Shown: positions 1 through 50,002 of the stretch, piece after piece
Numbering within the stretch: the stretch's first letter is position 1
Layout: each line of letters begins with the position of its first letter
Program-made: the position numbers and the translations under genes
From: Shigella phage phiL
Reading direction: 5' to 3' (one strand)
DNA length: 50,002 nucleotides
Sequence record: PP134913
The notes under the pieces: model-generated
The model's input: the letters and a program-made list of their open reading frames with translations, nothing else
Database searches by the model: none
Told to the model about the DNA's origin: nothing

Positions 1-331
1 GAATGCGCATCATTCGAACGCTCCCGCACACAGTAGTAACATGATTACGATCCCAACAATGGCATGACCCATGCAGAAGAACCAGACGGCAGACCATAAT
101 GCAATCGTGTTGAAGTTCATTTCAGTCCCTCGATCTTGTTGTCGCCGATTGAGTTTTCTACTCCCGATTGCGGGTCATCGCCAGGAACGCGCATGTAGAA
201 ATTCCTCACCGCCGTGAAGTTCCATTGACCGCGCCACTTGAAATAGACTCCGTGTTTTGCGCCCATTGCGTAGTGAGTGGATTTTGCCGGGATCATGTGC
301 CCGTTAACGCGGGTTAGTTGAGTTAGGTTGC
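1..331. repeat. Wrap-around overlap, copy 1 (matches 49672..50002 with 3 mismatches)
   Basis: Direct comparison of window ends; differences only at 127, 163, 204 (C here, A in the other copy). Confidence 0.9.
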
Positions 332-344
332 TGTAACGTGGCAT
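117..344 (-). CDS. hypothetical protein (75 aa)
   Basis: ORF in minus-strand early block, inside the terminal overlap. Confidence 0.45.
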   Translation of the reverse strand: MPRYSNLTQLTRVNGHMIPAKSTHYAMGAKHGVYFKWRGQWNFTAVRNFYMRVPGDDPQSGVENSIGDNKIEGLK

Positions 345-350
345 AATTAT

Positions 351-614
351 TTATTCCTCAATTAAAGTGCTGATATCGTCATAACCCTGAAATTCACCGT
401 TCCAGATCAAGAAGCTCGTTACACCTTCGATCTCAACCCACTTACCGTTTTCTTCGAGATACTCCTTGTAAATGTATGGTGAAAGCTCAATCACTGCATA
501 GCGGCGATACTGCACGCCACCATTGATGTTTGAGCAGTAGCGAGCAATGAATATCGCGTGTTGCTTGTTGTGGCGTGTTGCTTCTATTGCGTTACGGTTC
601 TTGACGATTGACAT
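351..614 (-). CDS. hypothetical protein (87 aa)
   Basis: ORF directly downstream of promoter-like element 654..699. Confidence 0.5.
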   Translation of the reverse strand: MSIVKNRNAIEATRHNKQHAIFIARYCSNINGGVQYRRYAVIELSPYIYKEYLEENGKWVEIEGVTSFLIWNGEFQGYDDISTLIEE

Positions 615-653
615 GGTGATTCCTCTGATTGGTATCTCGTTTTGATGGGGTAA

Positions 654-699
654 CTATAGCAAGATACCCCGATCCTGTTTTAACAATTCGTGCTATTTA
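654..699 (-). promoter_or_regulatory. conserved promoter-like element (motif at about -42, hairpin, TATAGT -10)
   Basis: Gene-strand AATAGCACGAATTGTTAAA, 22 nt, TATAGT, then conserved TACCCCATCAAAACGAG leader. Confidence 0.55.
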
Positions 700-1163
700 G
701 TGAGATACTTCACGCCGCTTCCGGCGACCTCGTTCCAACCATCCTCAAAGTGTATGATGCTATAGCAAGTTGCCGAACGCTGGCGAACCTTAGATACAGT
801 GCGCCATACCTTACGGCCTGAGTAACCAGTCAGCACACGCATTCCTGGCAATAACTCACCTGACTTCCTCACTTTAATGGTCACATCATAACAAAGCTCG
901 AACGACTCAAGGCGAACCGGATTGATCATCTCATACATTCGCATAACTTCGTGATCTTCTTTCCATTCGCAGCCGTCGCTAGCCTTAACCGCTTCAATAA
1001 AATTACTCAGCTTGTCAGTGAAATCTCCGTCGTAAGCCTCAATTGCGATGACCGTGTAATGAGTGTACGTGTGCCAGTGCGATCCGGTTTTATGCTCGAA
1101 CGCGAAGAATGACATTTCTCCGTCCAGTTCATCTTTAGCAAGAAATACGGTAATAGTTGTCAT
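693..1163 (-). CDS. hypothetical protein (156 aa)
   Basis: Long ORF, tightly packed with neighbours. Confidence 0.55.
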   Translation of the reverse strand: MTTITVFLAKDELDGEMSFFAFEHKTGSHWHTYTHYTVIAIEAYDGDFTDKLSNFIEAVKASDGCEWKEDHEVMRMYEMINPVRLESFELCYDVTIKVRKSGELLPGMRVLTGYSGRKVWRTVSKVRQRSATCYSIIHFEDGWNEVAGSGVKYLTK

Positions 1164-1165
1164 GA

Positions 1166-1360
1166 TTAAGCCTCAGCAAAGTAAGTGTTAAAGCCTTTGA
1201 GTTTGTAGTCGCTGCCAACTCGCACTACGTTCCAGGTAAGGCCCGAGTGATACGCAACCATATCTTCAATGTCGATCGTGATTTCGGCTCCTTTCTTGAA
1301 CAGACCCTTTTCATGAGTCGAGTCTCGCTGAACAACCACCACGTCAATTTGCGTTTCCAT
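1166..1360 (-). CDS. hypothetical protein (64 aa)
   Basis: ORF downstream of promoter-like element 1392..1437. Confidence 0.5.
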   Translation of the reverse strand: METQIDVVVVQRDSTHEKGLFKKGAEITIDIEDMVAYHSGLTWNVVRVGSDYKLKGFNTYFAEA

Positions 1361-1391
1361 CTTCGTTTCCTCATTCGTTGTCGATGGGATA

Positions 1392-1437
1392 ACTATACCA
1401 GGTTATCCCGATCCGGTTTTAACAAAAAGTGCTATTT
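1392..1437 (-). promoter_or_regulatory. conserved promoter-like element
   Basis: AATAGCACTTTTTGTTAAA, 22 nt, TATAGT, CATCGACAACGA. Confidence 0.55.
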
Positions 1438-1449
1438 ACCGCTCAGTGC

Positions 1450-1605
1450 TCACAGTCCACACTTTTCGATATGCGCTTTCATCTGGCGCACGATCTCATT
1501 GATGCTACTAAGTTGAATGCGGTTCGCGCTCAGTTTTTTAGTATCCAGCTTGAACGTGTCCAAGTGACGGCTAATGCTCTTTTTGCCTTCATTCTTCTTG
1601 TTCAT
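1450..1605 (-). CDS. small hypothetical protein (51 aa), not in ORF track
   Basis: ATG 1605 preceded by GGAGAAG; start abuts stop of 1608..2183. Confidence 0.4.
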   Translation of the reverse strand: MNKKNEGKKSISRHLDTFKLDTKKLSANRIQLSSINEIVRQMKAHIEKCGL

Positions 1606-1607
1606 GA

Positions 1608-2183
1608 TTACTTCTCCTCACCCAGTAAATGTGCGCGGAATTGCTCCACTAGTTTATTGAGATCCGATACCGAGATGTTGCTACCCTCAAACTCTCTCAG
1701 ATCGATTCTGAACGCCTCAACCTTCGCATTGAACACATCGGCTATGCTCTTACGCTTCCGTCCTCTCTTTCCCTGCTTCGCTTCGCCTATGACCTTTTCT
1801 GCTTCCTCACCTTCCAGTTCAGTGATGAATATCGTCACGCCATCCACCTGATCGCGATTGATTCGAACCGACACGGCCTTGTTATGCACCTTGAGCATGT
1901 GGCGCTTGATGATATTGGAAACATACGAAGCGGTGAGTCGTTCGAGCAACCAGGCTGAGCGCGACGTGTACTCGTTAATGATAGCCTCATCAATCTGGTC
2001 CTCGGTTAGCTCAATATCCTGAGTGACCTTTACGATCTCGGCTTGCTCATGCACGTAGATAGCTACCATTTGCTTTCCGGTGATTGAGAACTCACTCCCT
2101 GAATGGTGATTTTCAATCGCCTTGCGAATGTAGTCCGGCAAGTTGAGTTCGAATTCCGTTACTTCTTTAAGCTGAGTTTTCAT
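1608..2183 (-). CDS. hypothetical acidic protein (191 aa)
   Basis: First gene of leftward early block leaving divergent region 2184..2824. Confidence 0.55.
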   Translation of the reverse strand: MKTQLKEVTEFELNLPDYIRKAIENHHSGSEFSITGKQMVAIYVHEQAEIVKVTQDIELTEDQIDEAIINEYTSRSAWLLERLTASYVSNIIKRHMLKVHNKAVSVRINRDQVDGVTIFITELEGEEAEKVIGEAKQGKRGRKRKSIADVFNAKVEAFRIDLREFEGSNISVSDLNKLVEQFRAHLLGEEK

Positions 2184-2592
2184 TTGTCTATACCTCGTTG
2201 TCTACGGGCGTAACTTGCCGCCCCGAAAAACATGTTACAGCAACCTGGCTAGGCGCGTCAATGTCTATAGCTGCATTTTTTATTTTTGTAACCAGTGCAA
2301 CCGATGCAACCGACTTTTTATATAAAAGTACACACATCCATTTCGACGCGTGGAATAGTATGTTTTTTATACTATGCACCATGAAATATATGCCACCCTC
2401 CAAAAATGCGGTTGCACCTATTACGCCGATTACATGCCAATATATAATATAATAAATAAATAAATATATATTATCTATCTTATTATTATATATAGATATT
2501 TTAGTATAGTTAGGCTCATCCCTTCGAGGCCATTTTGTAACACCCATGATAGTATACAACTATTACGACAATTACAACGACAATATAGACGG

Positions 2593-2610
2593 ATAGCACT
2601 TTTTGCTAAA
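2593..2610 (+). promoter_or_regulatory. motif copy in divergent control region
   Basis: ATAGCACTTTTTGCTAAA. Confidence 0.4.
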
Positions 2611-2796
2611 AATGGAGATGGCTACCAGGCGAGCCGGGTAACACTAAATCCTCCCTCTCACAATCATTGCATTCTCATCAACAAATCAACCAACTGTTGC
2701 ACACCATGCAATAATCACGTTTCATCATTCGAGATCAATCGGGATCGCAATTATTCCACATATTCCAGTATTGATGGAATAATGAGCAATTATTGG

Positions 2797-2816
2797 AATA
2801 GCATTTTTCGCTAACG
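2797..2816 (+). promoter_or_regulatory. motif copy immediately upstream of methyltransferase-like gene start
   Basis: AATAGCATTTTTCGCTAACG ending 9 nt before ATG 2825. Confidence 0.4.
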
Positions 2817-2824
2817 ACTTAGCT

Positions 2825-3580
2825 ATGTTGGCAGGGTATGATTCATCACATCAACCAATCAGTATGGGATTTGCAATGAAACTAATTTGGTCACTATTCG
2901 ACGGTTCCGGCCTTGCTGGTCATGAACTGGCTAAGCAAGGTCATAAGGTGATGTGCTTCAACTTTGACGGGGCCGATCACGGAGATTATGCAAAGTACAA
3001 TGCCCGGGTAGAGCATCCGAATATTGAGTATGTGAACGTCTTCATTGATGATAAGTTCGAACGTGATGCGATCGCTGGTGTGTATGGCAAGCCGGATTTA
3101 ATCATGGCCTTTCCTCCATGCACTGACCTAGCTGTTAGTGGCGCTCGTCACTTTGCAAGTAAGCGTGAGCGCGATCCGTTATTCCAGGAGAAGGCTGTTG
3201 CAACCGCACGGATTGCTGCGAATATTGGCGACGCCCTGGGCGTGACCTACATCATTGAGAATCCGGTTAGCGTTCTGTCATCTGCCTGGAGAAAACCAGA
3301 TCACTCATTCAATCCCTGGGAGTATGGCGGCTATCTTCCCGAGAATGACTCACACCCCTGGTTCCCGATGTATATTGCGCCGCGCGATGCTTACCCGAAA
3401 AAGACGTGTCTTTGGACCTCGGACGATTTTGTCATGCCGGAGAGAAAGCCAGTAAGCCTGCCTGACGGGTACTCTGCGCAGCAAAACAAGCTGGGCGGCA
3501 AGTCGGCAAAGACAAAGCTGATACGATCCTTGTCGCCGCGTGGATTTTTCAAAGCGATCGCAAATAGCACTTTTTGTTAA
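2825..3580 (+). CDS. compact DNA cytosine-C5 methyltransferase-like protein (251 aa)
   Basis: Ordered motifs LFDGSGLAG (motif I-like), FPPCTDLAVSG (PC catalytic motif), IIENP (ENV-like); start codon uncertain. Confidence 0.5.
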   Translation: MLAGYDSSHQPISMGFAMKLIWSLFDGSGLAGHELAKQGHKVMCFNFDGADHGDYAKYNARVEHPNIEYVNVFIDDKFERDAIAGVYGKPDLIMAFPPCTDLAVSGARHFASKRERDPLFQEKAVATARIAANIGDALGVTYIIENPVSVLSSAWRKPDHSFNPWEYGGYLPENDSHPWFPMYIAPRDAYPKKTCLWTSDDFVMPERKPVSLPDGYSAQQNKLGGKSAKTKLIRSLSPRGFFKAIANSTFC

Positions 3581-3607
3581 AACTCGATCGGTGTGATTTG
3601 GCATAAT
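3563..3607 (+). promoter_or_regulatory. conserved promoter-like element
   Basis: AATAGCACTTTTTGTTAAA ... CATAAT TACCTCATCGAAACGAG. Confidence 0.5.
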
Positions 3608-3645
3608 TACCTCATCGAAACGAGATACACATCAGGAGCAGGAAA

Positions 3646-3981
3646 ATGAAATACGAAAATCGCGGTAACGAAATCATCAAAATCGAAAACGGCGTTGAGT
3701 ACATCATGGTAGCTTGCAAGGTTAACGGCATGGATTCCTTCGTATGGGAAGAAATCAAAACTGAAGACAAAGCTGCTAAATTCCTGACCTGTGTTAACCA
3801 GCCGGACGCGGAACGTGACACCTTCACCCGTTACGGTAAATATGAAATCGTTCGCGAGACTTCATGCTTCTGGTGGGTTAAGCCTAACAGCCAGTACAAA
3901 TTCCCGCGCAAAATAAGCAAGCGCACCATGCGTGAAGCTGGCTTCAAGAAAGCGTATGCCGCTGAGTTCGATATTGATTAA
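3646..3981 (+). CDS. hypothetical protein (111 aa)
   Basis: RBS CAGGAG upstream; promoter element 3563..3607. Confidence 0.5.
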   Translation: MKYENRGNEIIKIENGVEYIMVACKVNGMDSFVWEEIKTEDKAAKFLTCVNQPDAERDTFTRYGKYEIVRETSCFWWVKPNSQYKFPRKISKRTMREAGFKKAYAAEFDID

Positions 3982-4024
3982 TAGCACGAATTGCTAAACG
4001 CCCCGAAGGTGATCGGGGTATAGT
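3980..4024 (+). promoter_or_regulatory. conserved promoter-like element
   Basis: AATAGCACGAATTGCTAAA, 22 nt containing hairpin CCCCGA/TCGGGG, TATAGT. Confidence 0.55.
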
Positions 4025-9691: not shown

Positions 9692-9722
9692 GATATGTAG
9701 CCTCTTTGTTTTTGATGTGGTT

Positions 9723-9767
9723 ACTATACCCGAATCCCTTCGGGCGTTTTTATCAATTAGTGCGATC
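9723..9767 (-). promoter_or_regulatory. conserved promoter-like element (degenerate motif)
   Basis: TATAGT plus AACCACATCAAAAAC leader; motif GGATCGCACTAATTGATA. Confidence 0.4.
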
Positions 9768-11678: not shown

Positions 11679-11710
11679 CTTTTGATTCCTCATCTTGTCT
11701 CAATGAAATA

Positions 11711-11755
11711 ACTATACCCGACTTTCGCCGGGTATTTTTAGCAATTAGTGCTGAA
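11711..11755 (-). promoter_or_regulatory. conserved promoter-like element
   Basis: TTCAGCACTAATTGCTAAAA ... hairpin ... TATAGT. Confidence 0.5.
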
Positions 11756-11996
11756 CGATCGTATCTGCTTTAAGTTCCTCTACGTCTTTCTGGATAATTG
11801 AAGGCCAATTCTCGATATGTTCATTTTTTATCTCATCGAAAGACATATCAAGAGAACTAGTGAAATCCCACAGTTCGCAACCAATAACATCCTTAGTCAA
11901 TCCGTTTCGCTCCATAATTTCGCAGCACGTAGCTCGATAAAGTAGCCATAAACCTTGATCAGTTAACTTAACAGGAATCATTTTCTCGTTCATCAT
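11745..11996 (-). CDS. hypothetical protein (83 aa)
   Basis: ATGA overlap with Dam gene stop. Confidence 0.5.
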   Translation of the reverse strand: MMNEKMIPVKLTDQGLWLLYRATCCEIMERNGLTKDVIGCELWDFTSSLDMSFDEIKNEHIENWPSIIQKDVEELKADTIVQH

Positions 11997-12706: not shown

Positions 12707-12733
12707 TTTTAGTCCTCTCGTTTTGGTGAAATA

Positions 12734-12779
12734 ATAATGCCAGATTCCATTCCGGCAGTTTTAACAAAAAGTGCTATTT
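12734..12779 (-). promoter_or_regulatory. conserved promoter-like element upstream of Dam gene
   Basis: AATAGCACTTTTTGTTAAAA ... CATTAT ... CAAAACGAGAGG leader. Confidence 0.5.
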
Positions 12780-13190
12780 CATCATTTCGTAGATTGAGAT
12801 CTTGAATTGCGCGAATCCGTATGCGACGGCAGAGAAGCCGCCACGCTCCCGGACCTTTCGAAGAAACTCCCTTTGCTTGTCGCTGACTGGTGACGCCTTT
12901 CCTTTGCCTGACTTATTAACCCGCTTTAGTTCTATTGCTGCAAACGGATATTTTGAGTTGACACCAATCAGGATAACGAAGTCTGACACGCCTTTAAGTA
13001 ATCCAGCCTGTTCATCCCTTAGTGCCGATGTGATTGTTTTTTCACCTTCATTGACGGTGTGCCAAAATAGAAGGTGAGGGAAATTGTATTTCAACCAGGA
13101 CACGCAATCCACCTGATGAGCATCCTCCTTTCGAATGTCGCTGGGATCTCGCTCGTAAAACTCTAAGTAATCTCCTTTGTCTGTAATCAT
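12774..13190 (-). CDS. VRR-NUC domain nuclease
   Basis: PD-(D/E)xK-type residues (SDFVILI ... AIELK); ATGA overlap with helicase stop. Confidence 0.65.
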   Translation of the reverse strand: MITDKGDYLEFYERDPSDIRKEDAHQVDCVSWLKYNFPHLLFWHTVNEGEKTITSALRDEQAGLLKGVSDFVILIGVNSKYPFAAIELKRVNKSGKGKASPVSDKQREFLRKVRERGGFSAVAYGFAQFKISIYEMMK

Positions 13191-16786: not shown

Positions 16787-16830
16787 GATAGCACAATGAT
16801 AAAATCATTGTTTAGCAATTCGTGCTATTT
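16787..16830 (+). promoter_or_regulatory. motif copy plus half-site and palindrome CAATGAT-AAA-ATCATTG upstream of tail fibre RBS
   Basis: GATAGCAC, CAATGATAAAATCATTG, TTTAGCAATTCGTGCTATTT ending 8 nt before AAGGAG. Confidence 0.45.
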
Positions 16831-16848
16831 ACTTAAGGAGTTTATACT

Positions 16849-21434: not shown

Positions 21435-21665
21435 ATGAAAAAGTTAATCACCATTATCGCTGCGGCAGTCATCCTGACTGGTTGCTCTCAGAATATTAAA
21501 AATGGAGACTGCGTTACTTACTCTTACGGATCTTGCATGATGCGATTCGTTGACGGCAGGAAGATTCCGGCTGGCGAAATCGATATGCGATTCAAAGGTC
21601 TGTCATCCGACGACGATCAGGGTAACTTCAGCGGCAAGGTATCAATCAAAACTAAAGAGTGGTAA
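21435..21665 (+). CDS. small lipoprotein, candidate superinfection-exclusion protein
   Basis: Signal peptide with lipobox LTGC; own sigma70-like promoter 21377..21405. Confidence 0.55.
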   Translation: MKKLITIIAAAVILTGCSQNIKNGDCVTYSYGSCMMRFVDGRKIPAGEIDMRFKGLSSDDDQGNFSGKVSIKTKEW

Positions 21666-21667
21666 TT

Positions 21668-22624
21668 ATGGGGCAAGGAATATACATAAATCTAAATGAC
21701 GGTCGTCCGGCAATGGAGATAACCTCTGGACTTCGCGCACCGTCATGGTGCGGACCAATACAAGCGGACGGGGTTGATTCATCCGGATCGGTTTTTGATT
21801 TTGGTCTGCAAATGAGTCCTGGATCTACTGCTTTTTGCCTTCCATCTCAGGCTATCTACATAGATGATATGGATTACATACCAGAGGTGTATTATTTAAC
21901 AAGTTTCCAGAAGGTTAATGATTCAACAGGTCGAATAACGGTAGGTAATTTTAACGGGCACGGTGGGAGAAGGATGAGATTTTATGGCAACTGCTACGAA
22001 ATTCTCCCCGCTCAGGCTGGTAATCAAGGCATACTCGTTAACGATTCAACTAACTTCGCGGCGATACCGAATAACGCAAGGTTAATGAGCGCTGCATTTG
22101 TTGGAGGTATTCAGGTTAACGGTCAAGCTCAGTTGCCAGTACAGGGCGTTCCTTTCGGTATGTGGGATAATCCAAACGTAACACTTGAATCTGACGGCAA
22201 CACAATATGGTGCAGGGATGCAAACTATAACGGGATTGATGACGTTGGCGCGAGCGTATACGTGCAACTCGTAATATTTAATAACACTCCACCACCCCCA
22301 GGACCAGGAATAACCATGAGTAATCCTGCTGGTCAGATCGTCTTCTCAAGCGTTAGACGCCCATTCGTTCTCGGCGGGACTATGGCGATAAATGACGGGT
22401 GGCAGTGGTGTGGTGGATTTTTCCCAATACTAAGAACAGGTACGATATGTAGAGTTACAGGTGGATATAATAACATTAGATACAAGGGCGTGTGTATGAG
22501 CGGCGGTAACGTTAGAAGCGCCCCAGGAACAAGAGTAGGTAATTATTCCACCAAAAGCGGAGCGCGATTCCCCTTCAATATAAACATTTCAATGCCAATT
22601 CCTTTCACTCCGAACATGTATTAA
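21668..22624 (+). CDS. hypothetical two-domain protein with PPPPGPG linker (318 aa)
   Basis: Co-oriented with lipoprotein; convergent on J gene; terminator 22623..22652. Confidence 0.5.
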   Translation: MGQGIYINLNDGRPAMEITSGLRAPSWCGPIQADGVDSSGSVFDFGLQMSPGSTAFCLPSQAIYIDDMDYIPEVYYLTSFQKVNDSTGRITVGNFNGHGGRRMRFYGNCYEILPAQAGNQGILVNDSTNFAAIPNNARLMSAAFVGGIQVNGQAQLPVQGVPFGMWDNPNVTLESDGNTIWCRDANYNGIDDVGASVYVQLVIFNNTPPPPGPGITMSNPAGQIVFSSVRRPFVLGGTMAINDGWQWCGGFFPILRTGTICRVTGGYNNIRYKGVCMSGGNVRSAPGTRVGNYSTKSGARFPFNINISMPIPFTPNMY

Positions 22625-26131: not shown

Positions 26132-26150
26132 TGAACCCATTATACAGGCG

Positions 26151-26173
26151 AAAAAAAACCCGCGCAAGGCGGG
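26151..26173 (-). terminator. intrinsic terminator between I-like and J-like genes
   Basis: Hairpin CCCGCGCAAGGCGGG with 8 T on gene strand; identical hairpin at 28332..28346. Confidence 0.6.
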
Positions 26174-26179
26174 TTAATT

Positions 26180-26779
26180 TTAACTCATATCCTCGGCATA
26201 AGAACCTGCTGAGAAAGTTGCGCCACCTCCGGCTCGATATCCATACGGGACCGGGAGAGGGTATCCCGCCGCCGTCGTGTTGACAGCACCGCCGAACGCG
26301 TACGAAGGTTTATTCTTGCTTGATTGAACTTCAAAGTTTGCTCCACCCGGCTGCGGTGAAATCATTTGCATCACGCCGCCCAGCACCATAGCGCCGCCCA
26401 TCATAAACAGAGAAGATGACATTGTTCCCATTAATGCCAGAGACGCACCTCCAGTATAGAACGCAGCAACCATTATTGCTGCACCCAATACAACCTGAAA
26501 TAGACCGCCGGACTTAGAACCAGTCGGGATCGGGACAATCCTTATCTCTTTGGCGCACTTGAATTTTTCCTCTTCATGGTGTCCAACGTTAACGCCGTCA
26601 ACAAATATTGCAAACTTACTTCGAGAGCCAACCTCGCTCTGCATGTATTCTTTAAATCCATCTACCTGACTGGATAGTGCGCGAATGGCTTCCGGGTAAG
26701 ATTCAACAGCAAAGCGGTGAAAGACGCCGAAGCGCCTACCAAGCGAACCTGATAACTTGATTACTTTTACATCATTCAT
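26180..26779 (-). CDS. tail assembly protein (lambda I-like)
   Basis: Position between K-like and J-like; Gly/Ala-rich hydrophobic C-terminal half. Confidence 0.7.
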   Translation of the reverse strand: MNDVKVIKLSGSLGRRFGVFHRFAVESYPEAIRALSSQVDGFKEYMQSEVGSRSKFAIFVDGVNVGHHEEEKFKCAKEIRIVPIPTGSKSGGLFQVVLGAAIMVAAFYTGGASLALMGTMSSSLFMMGGAMVLGGVMQMISPQPGGANFEVQSSKNKPSYAFGGAVNTTAAGYPLPVPYGYRAGGGATFSAGSYAEDMS

Positions 26780-28289: not shown

Positions 28290-28324
28290 TGATTTTTCCT
28301 CTTGTTTACCTGCAACCATTCTAC

Positions 28325-28346
28325 AGCTACAAAAAAACCCGCGCAA
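28325..28346 (-). terminator. intrinsic terminator between M-like and L-like genes
   Basis: Same 15-nt hairpin CCCGCGCAAGGCGGG with 7 T. Confidence 0.6.
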
Positions 28347-28368
28347 GGCGGGATTTTGTTATGTGGCG

Positions 28369-40606: not shown

Positions 40607-42178
40607 TTATTGCCGCTTAACCATCCCGGCAAGTCGCTTCATTCGCTCTATAGGATCGTCAATAGTCAGCAATTCAATGTTCGCCGCATCCATGAAGTTA
40701 TCGACAATGTCATCATGCGGATGTGTGTCATCATATGTGAAAGCGCTATGCTCTGCGATGATTTCCGCAAGCATAGGGTGCTCTTCTGGAAGAACTACAC
40801 GCCCGGCCTTAATAACTGGCTGAGCATCCATCGCTCGGGTAACTTTATCTTTGTTACGTTGCAATGGTGTAATTGAGATCGGGGTCTTTTTCCTTAAGTT
40901 CTGAATCAAGCCCGTTCCGCTCGCTTTATCTTCCACGTAGATTTTGCGAAGCACGCCCATTGATTTATTGTGCCTCCATGCCTGATTCACAAAGGCGGTA
41001 AATTGTTTCTCCATATCAGGCGCTTCCCACTTGCCGCGAATGCCGTCGATAAAGTAAACCTTATCGTTTTTCTTACCCCATAAACAAAAGACTGTGTAGT
41101 CGTTTAGCTCGCCAGTCTTCTGAGCGGTATCTGCTGTGATAAAACGGTAATCATATTTACCAGGATCTGGCTCGTCAGCGTCAAGGCTGCTACCGTAATA
41201 AGTCCACCATTCCGAGTTAAACACGGAGCCACCAAGCGCGATCGGCTTCTGCTGATACTGAGAGTCAAAGGTGTACTGGTCCGCTTCGCGCAAAGCTAAC
41301 AGGTCGTGTACACTTTCCTTGCTGGGCCAGAATGAGTAATGCTTAACTCCATCCAACTCTACATATTCAGACGACAAAACGTCGCGCTCAAAGTAAGGCT
41401 GCAACCAGTCAGGAAGCGTCTTTCCGTATTCTTCAGTAACCAGTGCCGGAATTGAGATCTGATCAAACTCAATACCCATGCCGCCATTCATCATGAACCA
41501 TGTTGAATCCTGAGCATGTAGTCGTTGCTGAATTGCAATAATAGGCGTCTCGTTATGCATACGACGGGATCGTATGGTGTTCTTCAATAGCATATGGGTA
41601 CGCTCACGCTTAACCTTTGAGAACATATCATCAGGCTTATCGATATCGTCTAGCATTACCATACCTGAGAATCCCGGCATCATGTAGCCACCACGCGAAC
41701 CAGTAATGCGACCGCCAGCCGCAGCGGATATCAACTCAAACCAAACCTTTCCATCCTCGTTAAGAACCTGCATCTCTTCGTCTTTCGATGTACCGAATTT
41801 GCAAGGCCATAGCTCTTGAAATTCGTTGCTGCTGATAATCTCACGCACACGCTTACTGTTACGCTTAACCAAGCTGTCGGCAAACGACACGTTAAGGTTT
41901 CGCACCTTCTTACACTTGAGCATTGCGTATACCGGAAGGTGGATTGAGAACACTTCAGTTTTACCGGAGCCTGGCGTGACGTTAAAGATAGTGTTACCGC
42001 GTCGGCCTGCAATAATTTCCTCCACTTCGTGACATAGGTAAAGGTGATGCCAGTTAGGCTGGAACTGCTGAGCCTGCATAAGCTGAAACCAGATCCGAAT
42101 CATTTTTTCGAAATTGGCCTCGCTCATTTTTTTGATCGCCAACTTCTGAGTTGCGTCGAGTTCTTCCCATTGAATCAT
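40607..42178 (-). CDS. terminase large subunit
   Basis: 523 aa with P-loop-like TPGSGKT and nuclease-like C-terminus; between TerS and portal. Confidence 0.85.
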   Translation of the reverse strand: MIQWEELDATQKLAIKKMSEANFEKMIRIWFQLMQAQQFQPNWHHLYLCHEVEEIIAGRRGNTIFNVTPGSGKTEVFSIHLPVYAMLKCKKVRNLNVSFADSLVKRNSKRVREIISSNEFQELWPCKFGTSKDEEMQVLNEDGKVWFELISAAAGGRITGSRGGYMMPGFSGMVMLDDIDKPDDMFSKVKRERTHMLLKNTIRSRRMHNETPIIAIQQRLHAQDSTWFMMNGGMGIEFDQISIPALVTEEYGKTLPDWLQPYFERDVLSSEYVELDGVKHYSFWPSKESVHDLLALREADQYTFDSQYQQKPIALGGSVFNSEWWTYYGSSLDADEPDPGKYDYRFITADTAQKTGELNDYTVFCLWGKKNDKVYFIDGIRGKWEAPDMEKQFTAFVNQAWRHNKSMGVLRKIYVEDKASGTGLIQNLRKKTPISITPLQRNKDKVTRAMDAQPVIKAGRVVLPEEHPMLAEIIAEHSAFTYDDTHPHDDIVDNFMDAANIELLTIDDPIERMKRLAGMVKRQ

Positions 42179-42216: not shown

Positions 42217-42741
42217 TTAAAGCATGTCAAGAATACTGTTTACAGCCTCTTTCATTGCTTCCTCAGTAGTGGCGACAGCGGTCGACGCTGAAGCTGCCGA
42301 GTTTTCGATGTTGATTGAAGCTGGCTTGTCGATTCCGAGATCCTTGCCGATAAATGAGGCGTTAATAACGCCGTTTGCGGCAAGCTGAAATTTTTGCTCG
42401 TTGATTACGGATTCCACGAACTCCATAACCTCACTGTATTCTTCCTCACGCTTCCACTTAATGATTGCGGCCTCGCTTGCACCGATAAACAGTCGATATC
42501 CGGTCCAGGTGAAGACGCGCGGCTTATGAACAAGCGATTCATAAACGCCACCCTGAAAGCTGGCTGATTCTGAAGCCTTTATCGCGTTGTCCTCAGCCCA
42601 TTCGAAATACTTCACCGACAGATCGAATAGTTGTTCTGGCGTCATCGCACGGTTCTTCGCAAGAACAGTGCCGAATTTTTTCTTGTATAGCTCTTTGAAA
42701 TTACCTCCCTGGACTACGGGAGCATTCTTAGGTTCACTCAT
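42217..42741 (-). CDS. terminase small subunit
   Basis: Directly upstream of TerL; start set at ATG with AGAGGA RBS. Confidence 0.55.
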   Translation of the reverse strand: MSEPKNAPVVQGGNFKELYKKKFGTVLAKNRAMTPEQLFDLSVKYFEWAEDNAIKASESASFQGGVYESLVHKPRVFTWTGYRLFIGASEAAIIKWKREEEYSEVMEFVESVINEQKFQLAANGVINASFIGKDLGIDKPASINIENSAASASTAVATTEEAMKEAVNSILDML

Positions 42742-42757
42742 AAATCCATCCTCTTTG

Positions 42758-42778
42758 TTTAACATTTAGTGCTATTTT
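42758..42778 (-). promoter_or_regulatory. motif copy immediately upstream of TerS RBS
   Basis: Gene-strand AAATAGCACTAAATGTTAAAC then AAAGAGGA RBS. Confidence 0.45.
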
Positions 42779-42793
42779 ACCATATTGCAGGCA

Positions 42794-42816
42794 TAAAAAA
42801 ACCCGCCGAAGCGGGT
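42794..42816 (-). terminator. intrinsic terminator upstream of TerS
   Basis: Hairpin ACCCGCTTCGGCGGGT followed by 7 T. Confidence 0.6.
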
Positions 42817-42825
42817 TAGTATTTA

Positions 42826-44530: not shown

Positions 44531-44562
44531 TTCGATTTTCTCTATTCGTTGTCGATGAGGTA

Positions 44563-44608
44563 ACTATATCAAATCACCCCATCGACGCTTTAGCAATTCG
44601 TGCTATTT
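44563..44608 (-). promoter_or_regulatory. conserved promoter-like element
   Basis: AATAGCACGAATTGCTAAAG, 22 nt, TATAGT, TACCTCATCGACAACGAA. Confidence 0.55.
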
Positions 44609-45175
44609 ATTGATGAATGTGGCGGCTATGTGATGAGCGGTAATTTCTGGATGACCTTCGACAGAGAAGAAGTCACACTCCTGATAACCGTTAACCCCGA
44701 TCATATCGTCCAGGTAGATATAGTCTCGACTGTCATTATCGAAGTTGCAACCGTTGCGATGTATTCGACATAGCTTGACTTGGATATCACCTTCAATCAT
44801 CTGCAAGATTTCGTCTTTGAATCCACCATCAGTAAATACCGAAAGGGAGTGTGACTCTTTCACCTTGCTTTCCGCTCGCATACCGAAGAAGCGATTTCCG
44901 AACTGCGGCTTGATGACTTCCTCGCTAATCCAGATCATAAACTGGCGCGGGCTTTTACCGTTCAGGATAGATGCTGGCTCTTCTTTATATCGTCGGTCCT
45001 CATACAAGAACATGAAATACTCGTAGTTAGCTTCACCCAGGATTGCCCGGGCAATCTCAAACATTGGCGCTTTGAAGCTGCGCAAGGCTACGTGATCGTA
45101 AGTGTCAGCAAGGATGCATCCGATAGTGTCTTTTCCCGATCCAGGTGCGCCGTTTAAAATGATAGCTGTTTTCAT
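44603..45175 (-). CDS. deoxynucleoside monophosphate kinase-like P-loop kinase
   Basis: P-loop NGAPGSGKDT and LNGKSP motif resembling T4 gene 1 dNMP kinase. Confidence 0.6.
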   Translation of the reverse strand: MKTAIILNGAPGSGKDTIGCILADTYDHVALRSFKAPMFEIARAILGEANYEYFMFLYEDRRYKEEPASILNGKSPRQFMIWISEEVIKPQFGNRFFGMRAESKVKESHSLSVFTDGGFKDEILQMIEGDIQVKLCRIHRNGCNFDNDSRDYIYLDDMIGVNGYQECDFFSVEGHPEITAHHIAATFINK

Positions 45176-45176
45176 G

Positions 45177-45287
45177 TTAGTATCTCCCTAAAAATAATTT
45201 TGCTACATTGATGATAGTGTGATTGATGATTAACAGGATGATAACCGTCAATACCGGATGTGCTGCAATAAATTCGTACAGGTTCAC
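45177..45287 (-). CDS. possible very small hydrophobic peptide (36 aa, GTG start)
   Basis: GTG overlapping upstream TGA; AGGAG RBS. Confidence 0.25.
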   Translation of the reverse strand: MNLYEFIAAHPVLTVIILLIINHTIINVAKLFLGRY

Positions 45288-45895
45288 TTCAATAACTCCT
45301 TGCACTTAATGCATATTTTATCGCCAAATGGCGGTAGCGGCTCAGATGGTTCATGATTGCAAACCTCATCCACCCCGTGAGATTTTAAATGATCGTGAAC
45401 GTTATCGCCATAGTCAACTACGGCATACGTTGTTATTCCAAGCGATCGGAATAATGGAATAATTTGCGGTGAGTCATCCCAGGCCGCCAGAATGTTATCA
45501 ATGCCGATCGCGCGCACCGCCTCTTCTTTCATTACCGTGTCTTTGCGGTTGTCGGTATGCGGCCTCATGACTAAGTAATCATATCGCGCGCCGTGATGCT
45601 TAAGCCATAACTCAGATGCGTAACGCACCTCATCGCTTCGCCCGGTTAAAATGATCACATGATGACCAGCGGCATACATAGAGTTCATCACTTCAATCGT
45701 ACTCTGGATTGGGTTATCAAATATTGCCGCCCTGTTAAACTCAGACCAGCTTTCAGTCAAGTGCAAATCTTTTGTCGGTAGCAGGTGAAGACGTTTTGAG
45801 CCGTCACTCAGCGTTCAGTCGAAGTCAAAGATTGCCACGCGGCGAGTGCCGAGAAACAGGTTGATTGTCTGGCCCCAAATTGTGATTTTATCCAC
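45284..45895 (-). CDS. HAD-superfamily phosphatase interrupted by an in-frame TGA at codon 27
   Basis: GTG 45895 with AGGAGA RBS; reads VAIFDFD-TGA-TLSDG then intact HAD motifs (ILTGR, AWDDS); TGA at 45815..45817. Confidence 0.5.
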
Positions 45896-46098: not shown

Positions 46099-46137
46099 GG
46101 TGATTACTCTGATTGGTTGCTTAACTCAACGAAGGGC

Positions 46138-46182
46138 ATTCTATCAAATACCCTTGAGCAAGTTTTAGCAATTCGTGCTATT
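46138..46182 (-). promoter_or_regulatory. conserved promoter-like element
   Basis: AATAGCACGAATTGCTAAAA ... TAGAAT. Confidence 0.5.
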
Positions 46183-46627
46183 ACCAGCAACTGATCTCAT
46201 AATCAGCCCAAGTGTCAAAGCTACACTGGCTGAAGTCGCCGCCGTAGTTTTCCATAATTTCATCGACCAGGAAGTAACAGGACTCACCGTTACGGTAGAA
46301 GTATGAATCTGCAACGTTACGCGCCCAGCGTCCGGCATCCTTCTTGCTCATCTTCCAGTATTTCATTGCAATTTTCTTGAATGCACGCACAACACGCTTG
46401 CGGATCTTAATGTGCTTGTACACCGCGTTGCAGCCGTAGGCCATATATTCGTTATCGCCAAGATTCTGCATAATGTACGGATTTACTTCTTTTGACGTAA
46501 TCATCAGATCGCCATCGCATAGACGCGCATCATGAATACTTGCTGTCATGTAGTGACCTTTGAACATTCCGATGCCGTGAAGAGTGTATTCATCGTTAGG
46601 CGTTTCAATGCAAATTAAGTGTTTCAT
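46181..46627 (-). CDS. hypothetical protein (148 aa)
   Basis: Start set at ATG with GAGGAAG RBS; promoter element 46658..46702. Confidence 0.5.
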   Translation of the reverse strand: MKHLICIETPNDEYTLHGIGMFKGHYMTASIHDARLCDGDLMITSKEVNPYIMQNLGDNEYMAYGCNAVYKHIKIRKRVVRAFKKIAMKYWKMSKKDAGRWARNVADSYFYRNGESCYFLVDEIMENYGGDFSQCSFDTWADYEISCW

Positions 46628-46657
46628 TAGTGCTTCCTCGTTTGTTGGTGTAGGGGA

Positions 46658-46702
46658 ATCATAGCGCATTCCCCTTGATAGGTTTTAGCAATTCGTGCTA
46701 TT
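46658..46702 (-). promoter_or_regulatory. conserved promoter-like element
   Basis: AATAGCACGAATTGCTAAAA ... hairpin GGGGAAT/ATTCCCC with TATGAT. Confidence 0.5.
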
Positions 46703-46903
46703 CGTTTTAATAGTGATGCAAAAATAATTTTTTAAGCACGTCACCACGCGCGCTGAATCGACTTGTGGGAGCCTTAAAATCTCGTGGACCAATTGCACTG
46801 CCGACACCTCAGATTTGTAGTAGTGGGCGATTCTGGAGGTATTTGGGCGCATTCCTTCCACTGCGTCGCGTGCTGCATCTTCTGCTGTCATGATAGTAGC
46901 CAT
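46685..46903 (-). CDS. hypothetical protein (72 aa)
   Basis: ORF whose 3' end reads through motif copy. Confidence 0.4.
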   Translation of the reverse strand: MATIMTAEDAARDAVEGMRPNTSRIAHYYKSEVSAVQLVHEILRLPQVDSARVVTCLKNYFCITIKTNSTNC

Positions 46904-48164: not shown

Positions 48165-48204
48165 AGCTGATTCCTGTGATTGGTTGCTCTGCTTCAATAA
48201 GGCC

Positions 48205-48250
48205 ACTATATCAAATGGCCTTGCGGAAGGTTTAGCAATTCGTGCTATCG
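48205..48250 (-). promoter_or_regulatory. conserved promoter-like element
   Basis: GATAGCACGAATTGCTAAA ... hairpin GGCCA/TGGCC with TATAGT. Confidence 0.5.
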
Positions 48251-48879: not shown

Positions 48880-48909
48880 AACTCTTTCATCTTAGTGGTT
48901 GATGTGGGG

Positions 48910-48954
48910 ATTATACCAGTCAGGCCAAATCCCCTTTTAACAATTCGTGCTTAG
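48910..48954 (-). promoter_or_regulatory. conserved promoter-like element
   Basis: AAGCACGAATTGTTAAAA ... TATAAT ... CACATCAACCAC. Confidence 0.5.
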
Positions 48955-49439
48955 TAAACTAACTCGCACTCAATATCGAACGGCTCGGCGTTACAGTGGA
49001 AGAAGCAAAGTGCCTCTTTATTCATCCCGCCGACAAATCCAACGGCTCGCAACTGCTCATCGTTAACGTATGCCAGATTGCTAGTAATTTCTTCAAAGTC
49101 CACGATAACTGGGAATGTGCGGTTCTCATAGCCTTGTCGCAGCGGGTAGCCGCCATTGTTGAGAAGTCGAACCTTGCGCGGCTTGACGTTCGCTTGAACT
49201 TCCCATTCAAAAAAGAACATAGTTACGTCATTCTCGTTAAAGTCAGCTGGACCAAATACAGGGCTAACTGAAAGTCCATAGTCCAGATCGTACACGCCAG
49301 CCTTAACTAGATCGTCAACCTTAACGCGGTAGCCTCCAGTGCCGGAATCGCATTTAACCGCATCAACCACGATAGGGTCTGCTTCCAGGTCGCGGGTAAA
49401 GCCTTTGTAACCGCCAGTGCAAAGTAATTTGATTTTCAT
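48951..49439 (-). CDS. hypothetical protein (162 aa)
   Basis: Start set at ATG with ACGAGGG RBS; promoter element 49471..49515. Confidence 0.5.
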   Translation of the reverse strand: MKIKLLCTGGYKGFTRDLEADPIVVDAVKCDSGTGGYRVKVDDLVKAGVYDLDYGLSVSPVFGPADFNENDVTMFFFEWEVQANVKPRKVRLLNNGGYPLRQGYENRTFPVIVDFEEITSNLAYVNDEQLRAVGFVGGMNKEALCFFHCNAEPFDIECELVY

Positions 49440-49470
49440 GTTTGTGCCCTCGTTCGTTGTCGATGTGGTT

Positions 49471-49515
49471 ACTATATCGCAACCCCGGAATTGAGTTTTA
49501 ACAAAAAGTGCTATT
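49471..49515 (-). promoter_or_regulatory. conserved promoter-like element
   Basis: AATAGCACTTTTTGTTAAAA ... TATAGT AACCACATCGACAACGAACGAGGG. Confidence 0.55.
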
Positions 49516-49684
49516 CGCAAGTGATTTCATTTGATGTGATTGGTAGCAATACGTTTCCAACCATCACGAAAGTAGTAACCTGGTTTCCGGTTTCATGGCA
49601 TCTCTCTTTTACCTCTCCGCAGCCGGACACTACCATGATAGCCAGGGCGACCGCCGCCATCATGCAAATCAGAATGCGCATCAT
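49511..49684 (-). CDS. small lipoprotein (57 aa)
   Basis: Signal peptide MMRILICMMAAVALAIMVVSGC with lipobox; GGGAG RBS. Confidence 0.5.
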   Translation of the reverse strand: MMRILICMMAAVALAIMVVSGCGEVKERCHETGNQVTTFVMVGNVLLPITSNEITCE

Positions 49685-50002
49685 TCGAACGCTCCCGCAC
49701 ACAGTAGTAACATGATTACGATCCCAACAATGGCATGACCCATGCAGAAGAACCAGACGGCAGACCATAATGCAATCGTGTTGAAGTTCATTTCAGTACC
49801 TCGATCTTGTTGTCGCCGATTGAGTTTTCTACTACCGATTGCGGGTCATCGCCAGGAACGCGCATGTAGAAATTACTCACCGCCGTGAAGTTCCATTGAC
49901 CGCGCCACTTGAAATAGACTCCGTGTTTTGCGCCCATTGCGTAGTGAGTGGATTTTGCCGGGATCATGTGCCCGTTAACGCGGGTTAGTTGAGTTAGGTT
50001 GC
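49672..50002. repeat. Wrap-around overlap, copy 2 (genome unit length 49,671 bp)
   Basis: Matches 1..331; A at 49798, 49834, 49875 where copy 1 has C. Confidence 0.9.
49788..50002 (-). CDS. partial second copy of 117..344 ORF (runs off window end)
   Basis: Overlap duplicate; carries the three C-to-A differences. Confidence 0.4.
   Translation of the reverse strand, partial: NLTQLTRVNGHMIPAKSTHYAMGAKHGVYFKWRGQWNFTAVSNFYMRVPGDDPQSVVENSIGDNKIEVLK

Follow-up and report, generated by a model that had tools for sequence, protein, structure and literature searches.

The window analysed here, 50,002 bp in length, is the complete GenBank record PP134913 of Shigella phage phiL, a T1-like Tunavirus (Drexlerviridae siphovirus). 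A repeat search of the window showed that its first 331 bases recur at its end as a direct repeat with a spacing of 49,671 bp, and that 328 of the 331 positions are identical. This identity is far above chance, and the repeat extends exactly from the window's first base to its last. No other long direct repeat was found by the search; the next-longest in the window are intergenic elements of 28–81 nt. The three mismatches fall at 127/49798, 163/49834 and 204/49875; copy 1 has C at every one of these sites and copy 2 has A. The preliminary description had reported a 331-bp repeat with three mismatches of this kind, and both alignment and direct reading of the bases show that it was exact.

The overlap contains the homologue of T1 ST73 and most of the homologue of T1 ST74, which carries the DUF7274 domain (Table 1). 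Its boundaries each lie 13 nt inside a coding sequence, that of the ST72-like gene on the left and that of the DUF7274 gene on the right, and they match neither an intergenic region nor a packaging landmark. The first 13 nt of the ST72-like gene are inside the overlap and recur as an orphan fragment at window positions 1–13. As a result, the public phiL record lists the ST73-like gene twice and splits the ST72-like gene.

Table 1. Coordinates of the features of the phiL record discussed in the text.
Feature	Position	Strand	Remarks
Copy 1 of end overlap	1..331		Record start; alleles C127, C163, C204
Copy 2 of end overlap	49672..50002		Record end; A49798, A49834, A49875, the state common to relatives
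Mismatch cluster, 78 bp	127..204	-	Identical flanks of 126 and 127 bases
DUF7274 gene (T1 ST74 homologue, 75 aa), CDS_0001	117..344	-	Pfam PF23939, E 5e-39; reads R47, G61, G73
Second DUF7274 copy	49788..50002	-	Truncated by the record end, with 13 nt missing at its start; reads S47, V61, V73
36-aa gene (T1 ST73 homologue)	10..120, again 49681-49791	-	Duplicated through the overlap
57-aa lipoprotein-like gene (T1 ST72 homologue)	49511..49684	-	T1 ST72 is named lipoprotein
Stretch homologous to both T1 record ends	2592..2855		Join at ~2711-2713; corresponds to the pac-proximal end of T1 and lies ~2.4 kb away from the overlap
Large terminase	40607..42178	-	99% identical to T1 TerL (headful, pac-type); Pfam Terminase_6C
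Small terminase, P22 gp3-like	42217..42765	-	Pfam GP3_package; T1 ST54 annotation
PNKP-type HAD phosphatase gene	45284..45895	-	Pfam HAD_PNKP; TGA at 45815-45817
Intergenic repeats, first part	627-699, 1366-1438, 9719-9767, 11685-11757, 12708-12780, 16804-16831, 42751-42778	-	Repeat search
Intergenic repeats, rest	44537-44609, 46134-46184, 46654-46704, 48201-48249, 48884-48956, 49445-49517	-	Repeat search

The two copies of the DUF7274 gene encode proteins that differ by S47R, V61G and V73G (copy 2 to copy 1), so that all three changes are nonsynonymous. In an exact-sequence look-up, the copy-1 protein, deposited as WVX87262.1 (JFSRJRGV_CDS_0001), was found on one contig only, that of phiL. 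The copy-2 protein together with the shared N-terminus is identical to gp64 of phage pSf-2 and is present on 40 contigs. Neither G61 nor G73 occurs in any of 24 homologues, which all have V or I at residue 61 and V or E at residue 73.

The intergenic repeats of 28–73 nt form a family that reads, on the minus strand, TAAATAGCACGAATTGYTAAAA, followed after about 20 nt by TGnTATAGT or TATAAT. Judged by these letters, they look like candidate early promoters of the extended -10 type that have a conserved box upstream. Promoters are annotated at equivalent places in the record of a relative, but a simple sigma-70 scan of the window did not flag the repeats. A second, terminator-like element, AAAAAAACCCGCGCAAGGCGGGTT, is present in three copies (26132–26182, 28311–28361 and 42775–42825).

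When one copy of the overlap is removed, the record becomes a circular map of 49,671 bp. BLAST against the complete T1 genome yielded a single continuous colinear path, reverse-oriented and spanning all of T1, with window position 1 corresponding to T1 2111 and window position 50002 to T1 1781. On this path the linear T1 record has its start and its end side by side, at window ~2711–2713. Because colinearity extends over the whole of T1 and the window closes on itself, the unit is 49,671 bp, and the record holds one genome plus 331 bp. This length falls inside the 48.8–51.5 kb range of the relatives. The suggestion that the repeat is a wrap-around and that the window holds a whole genome of 49,671 bp is thus borne out by colinearity with the entire T1 genome. 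Some stretches of the window depart from T1. A segment of ~1.2 kb (2855–4016), adjoining the position that corresponds to the T1 pac end, lacks a counterpart in T1, and a 251-aa ORF in the stretch absent from T1 (2825–3580, plus strand) has no Pfam match. A 321-aa DUF6453 protein (21659–22624, plus strand; E 1e-126) lies where the sequence around the cor/tail-fibre junction diverges from that of T1.

The last kilobase of phiL is 84–94% identical to pSf-2, Chapo, ADB-2, T1 and others, and over 25 kb phiL is ~91–96% identical to Sfin-1, Shfl1 and DELF2. None of the GenBank phage genomes compared was identical to phiL, the best relatives being 91–96% identical. IMG/VR held neither a matching phiL contig nor either of the two 89-nt haplotypes, and exact look-up of three window proteins in Logan and ENA found no independent assembly of phiL. 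A literature search for phiL and its sequencing method found no describing paper.

One way to read the 331 bp is as two differing copies of a repeat that physically ends the phage DNA, be it a short DTR or the terminal redundancy of a defined molecule. The overlap does lie inside the region homologous to the annotated redundancy of T1, which is ~2.8 kb long and begins at pac (repeat_region 1..2800 in the T1 annotation), and some phage records are deposited with their repeats. phiL also belongs to the same genus as T1, shares its gene order and has a nearly identical TerL. However, the terminase is of the T1/P22 headful type, and T1-type redundancy is anchored at pac, for which the phiL equivalent is window ~2712 and not window 1 or 331, whereas the phiL repeat is one-eighth that size, lies elsewhere and has its boundaries inside coding sequences. 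Short reads, moreover, could not have assigned alleles 127–204 nt inside a repeat without the k-mer geometry described below. Both ends of virion DNA are copied from one concatemer template; fixed differences between them therefore cannot be maintained, which makes a physical terminal repeat very unlikely. Such a repeat should have packaging-defined ends, identical copies and a terminase to match, and this combination was not what we found. The record ends were also compared with headful ends of the T1 type, without a match, the pac equivalent being at ~2712. An alternative put forward in the preliminary description, real terminal redundancy with population heterogeneity, is therefore only half retained: a physical repeat does not agree with boundaries inside genes and off pac or with a length that k-mer geometry would explain, while heterogeneity among the reads, be it real or erroneous, is required.

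The 331-bp repeat is instead very probably an assembler artefact of a circularly permuted T1-like genome and not a structure of the phage DNA. End overlaps of 127 bp are a known SPAdes artefact in phage genomes (PMC5923482; PMC8104045). For Sfin-1, a close relative, the initial assembly was linear, 50,530 bp long and bounded by a 127-bp terminal repeat, and restriction analysis showed the Sfin-1 genome to be circularly permuted and headful-packaged (PMC6714547). As in Sfin-1 and U136B, which have the plain 127-bp form, the ends of the phiL record repeat, the circle with one copy removed is colinear with complete relatives, and the final 127 bp repeat exactly; the boundaries, too, mark no biological landmark, as expected of such an artefact. 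phiL differs from these cases in that its overlap is 331 bp and not 127 bp and carries three mismatches, and the explanation therefore has to assume, in addition, an unresolved bubble that was crossed by both branches.

We propose that the overlap would have arisen as follows. Headful packaging from concatemers in T1-like phages would lead the reads to assemble into a circle, at whose break a de Bruijn assembler, presumably run at k ~127, would normally leave a plain 127-bp end overlap. If the reads held two versions of the 78-bp stretch that spans the mismatches, one unresolved bubble would have formed there, and the contig path may have gone into it by one branch at the start and out by the other branch at the end. 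The overlap would then be the sum of 126, 78 and 127 bp, or 331 bp, and the three differences would sit at its centre. The A, A, A version of copy 2 would be the true sequence, and copy 1 (C, C, C) a minority haplotype among the reads.

The length of the overlap comes close to what this scheme predicts. At k = 127, a de Bruijn graph unites SNPs that are closer together than k in one bubble, the branches of which reach k bases to either side. SPAdes uses k = 127 by default for reads of at least 250 nt and does not collapse bulges above ~1000x coverage, a depth that the sequencing of phage isolates often far exceeds. Down-sampling of phage reads to ~100x has been recommended on account of such depths (PMC8104045). 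The predicted overlap of 78 + 2k at K = 127 is 332 bp under the SPAdes convention and 330 bp if nodes overlap by k-1, so that the observed 331 bp is one base off either prediction. Other usual values of K predict 188 bp (K = 55), 232 bp (77), 276 bp (99) and 360 bp (141). The near-perfect symmetry of the flanks (126 and 127 bases) would have a chance of ~1% if the flanks were arbitrary.

In order to polarise the mismatches, copy 2 was aligned without gaps to 28 related loci (~24 distinct records) drawn from GenBank phages, IMG/VR genomes, and Logan and ENA metagenome contigs. The equivalents of positions 127 and 163 were A in 28/28 loci, and the equivalent of 204 was A in 23 and G in 5. None of the 28 loci had C at any of the three sites. 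An apparent C at site 127 in phage ULIM2 proved to be a shift in a gapped BLAST alignment; ungapped alignment and the protein show A and Val. Since the relatives have A, A, and A or G, and never C, copy 2 is the normal sequence and copy 1 the aberrant one, with three derived A>C changes. The preliminary description had read the differences as C-to-A changes in the second copy; the 28 outgroup loci reverse this direction, to A (copy 2) becoming C (copy 1).

We compared these changes with the rest of the phiL sequence using a window-anchored alignment of ~20 kb with 13 relatives, in which a change was called private when the focal genome differed from all others and the others agreed. Outside the overlap, private changes of the A>C class numbered 4 in ~20 kb; this is the rarest common private-change class in the lineage. 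Three A>C changes within 78 bp amount to ~200x the background rate (Poisson P ~6e-7, calculated from the ~20-kb alignment), which excludes both ordinary divergence and recombination with any of the relatives sampled. Two private changes of the same rare class, 32966 A>C and 32968 T>G, lie two bases apart and away from the record ends. Two biological sources of clustered changes were tried and set aside: for a methylation motif (Dam/GATC or another) underlying all three sites, a GATC lies close to site 127 alone, and for DGR-like adenine mutagenesis, both copies are one locus on the circular map and the window holds no second template copy. No reverse transcriptase is annotated in T1, whose gene order phiL shares.

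The phosphatase gene bears on a further reading, in which copy 2 and a stop codon in this gene are both C>A (G>T) sequencing artefacts of oxidative damage with a common origin. On the minus strand the gene reads GTG GAT ... TTC GAC TGA ACG CTG, where relatives have GAC GGA ACG within the catalytic DFDGT (DxDGT) motif I; the A at 45817 thus creates an in-frame TGA (GAC TGA ACG) at the cost of the Gly codon GGA of DFDGT. Position 45817 is C in 20/20 related loci, so the phiL base is a private C>A change on the plus strand, as the preliminary description had held. Its context is CCG>CAG, which is that of 8-oxoG artefacts of library preparation, and such artefacts have allele fractions below 10–20% (Costello 2013). 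The likeness to 8-oxoG damage is confined to this one site. At the overlap sites the polarity is opposite (A>C): A is the state of all relatives at two of them and the relatives have A or G at the third, so that no C-to-A change took place there, and even when read as C-to-A these sites have a TCC context and not CCG. Artefacts at fractions below 10–20%, furthermore, would not become the consensus base. The genome-wide spectrum argues in the same direction. Among the 99 private substitutions of phiL in the ~20-kb alignment, 24 (24%) are of the C>A class, inside the 15–32% range of the 13 relatives, and hence the phiL consensus has no genome-wide C>A excess by this comparison.

A shared oxidative origin of the four sites, as had been proposed, is thus contradicted by direction, by context and by spectrum, and we regard it as highly improbable. 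The stop at 45817 is without demonstrable link to the overlap sites, and the four sites share no signature. The simplest account of this stop is either a true nonsense mutation in a gene that the phage can do without or an isolated error in the consensus; should the base be real, the HAD phosphatase gene is a pseudogene in the phiL record.

We next consider how the C alleles of copy 1 could have entered the reads. On the minus strand, which is the coding strand, all three changes are T>G and lie in CGGTAG, AGGTAC and GAGTAA, the changed T being the fourth base of each. By trinucleotide, two are GGT>GGG and one is AGT>AGG; the new base equals the preceding base at all three sites, all of them on one strand, and both GGTA sites within the 331 bp were changed. 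GGC occurs 7 times on the minus strand of the 331-bp segment versus 2 times on the plus strand, and a minus-strand GGC is found 7, 17 and 17 nt upstream of the three sites. This is a known pattern of Illumina error. Among systematic Illumina errors, GGT>GGG is the strongest, and it is tied to one direction of reading (Meacham 2011). Sequence-specific errors are triggered by GGC and clustered downstream of it, the error region being 40 nt, and most miscalls copy a preceding base via lagging-strand dephasing (Nakamura 2011). The phiL sites show T>G after G or GG on one strand, a new base equal to the preceding one, a GGC 7–17 nt upstream in the direction of reading and clustering within tens of bases, in keeping with both descriptions (Nakamura 2011; Meacham 2011).

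The C-C-C haplotype of copy 1 is therefore probably an instance of this sequence-specific miscall pattern. In reads of one orientation, a T that follows GG or AG and has a GGC motif upstream would have been called as the G before it, and the resulting haplotype could have survived assembly through the very high coverage usual for phage isolates. phiL departs from the documented cases in two respects. One of its sites is AGT and not the canonical GGT, and systematic errors are normally minority calls in a pile-up, whereas in phiL they would have reached the deposited consensus and a protein record. The miscall part of the explanation is weakened by the fact that three errors must co-occur on the same reads, which needs correlated errors and very deep coverage.

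This is also where a real subpopulation has to be weighed. In that case the overlap would still be artefactual, but the C-C-C haplotype would belong to phages in the lysate with linked S47R, V61G and V73G changes in the DUF7274 early gene, both alleles being kept. A true polymorphic bubble, or a subpopulation with three SNPs, yields exactly the same contig geometry, and a contiguous branch at k ~127 requires linkage on reads, which a real haplotype would supply more naturally than separate errors. That every change is nonsynonymous is as expected under selection. Nevertheless, such phages would have to carry three changes of the rarest class, on one strand, all in a G-T-A context and within 78 bp, against a background of 4 per ~20 kb. 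Their alleles are absent from the 28 related loci and the 24 homologous proteins, the latter being restricted to V/I and V/E at positions 61 and 73, and the pattern coincides with a documented instrument error. We consider a real subpopulation unlikely.

Taken together, an assembly artefact combined with a miscall haplotype is the explanation we favour, with a probability of roughly 0.7 for the whole. On this explanation, the phiL record is probably 331 bp too long, 49,671 bp being the real unit, and WVX87262.1 probably carries three false amino-acid changes. The significance is mainly one of data hygiene. An imperfect end overlap longer than k can be a pure k-mer artefact, and checks for circularity that rely on exact matches would miss such cases. 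The phiL overlap also provides a worked example of why a mismatch should be polarised by outgroups before any mutational signature is read into it.

There is nothing biologically new in the repeat itself, and new biology would follow only if the C-C-C haplotype were real. The corresponding claim, a coexisting phiL subpopulation with clustered same-strand A:T>C:G transversions at G-T-A, all of them amino-acid-changing and in the DUF7274 gene, we hold to be quite improbable. A:T>C:G is the MutT-type signature. Were the haplotype real, it would point to a single localised mutational event, such as a patch of 8-oxo-dGTP misincorporation, or, alternatively, strong selection on the DUF7274 protein, the product of a small early gene.
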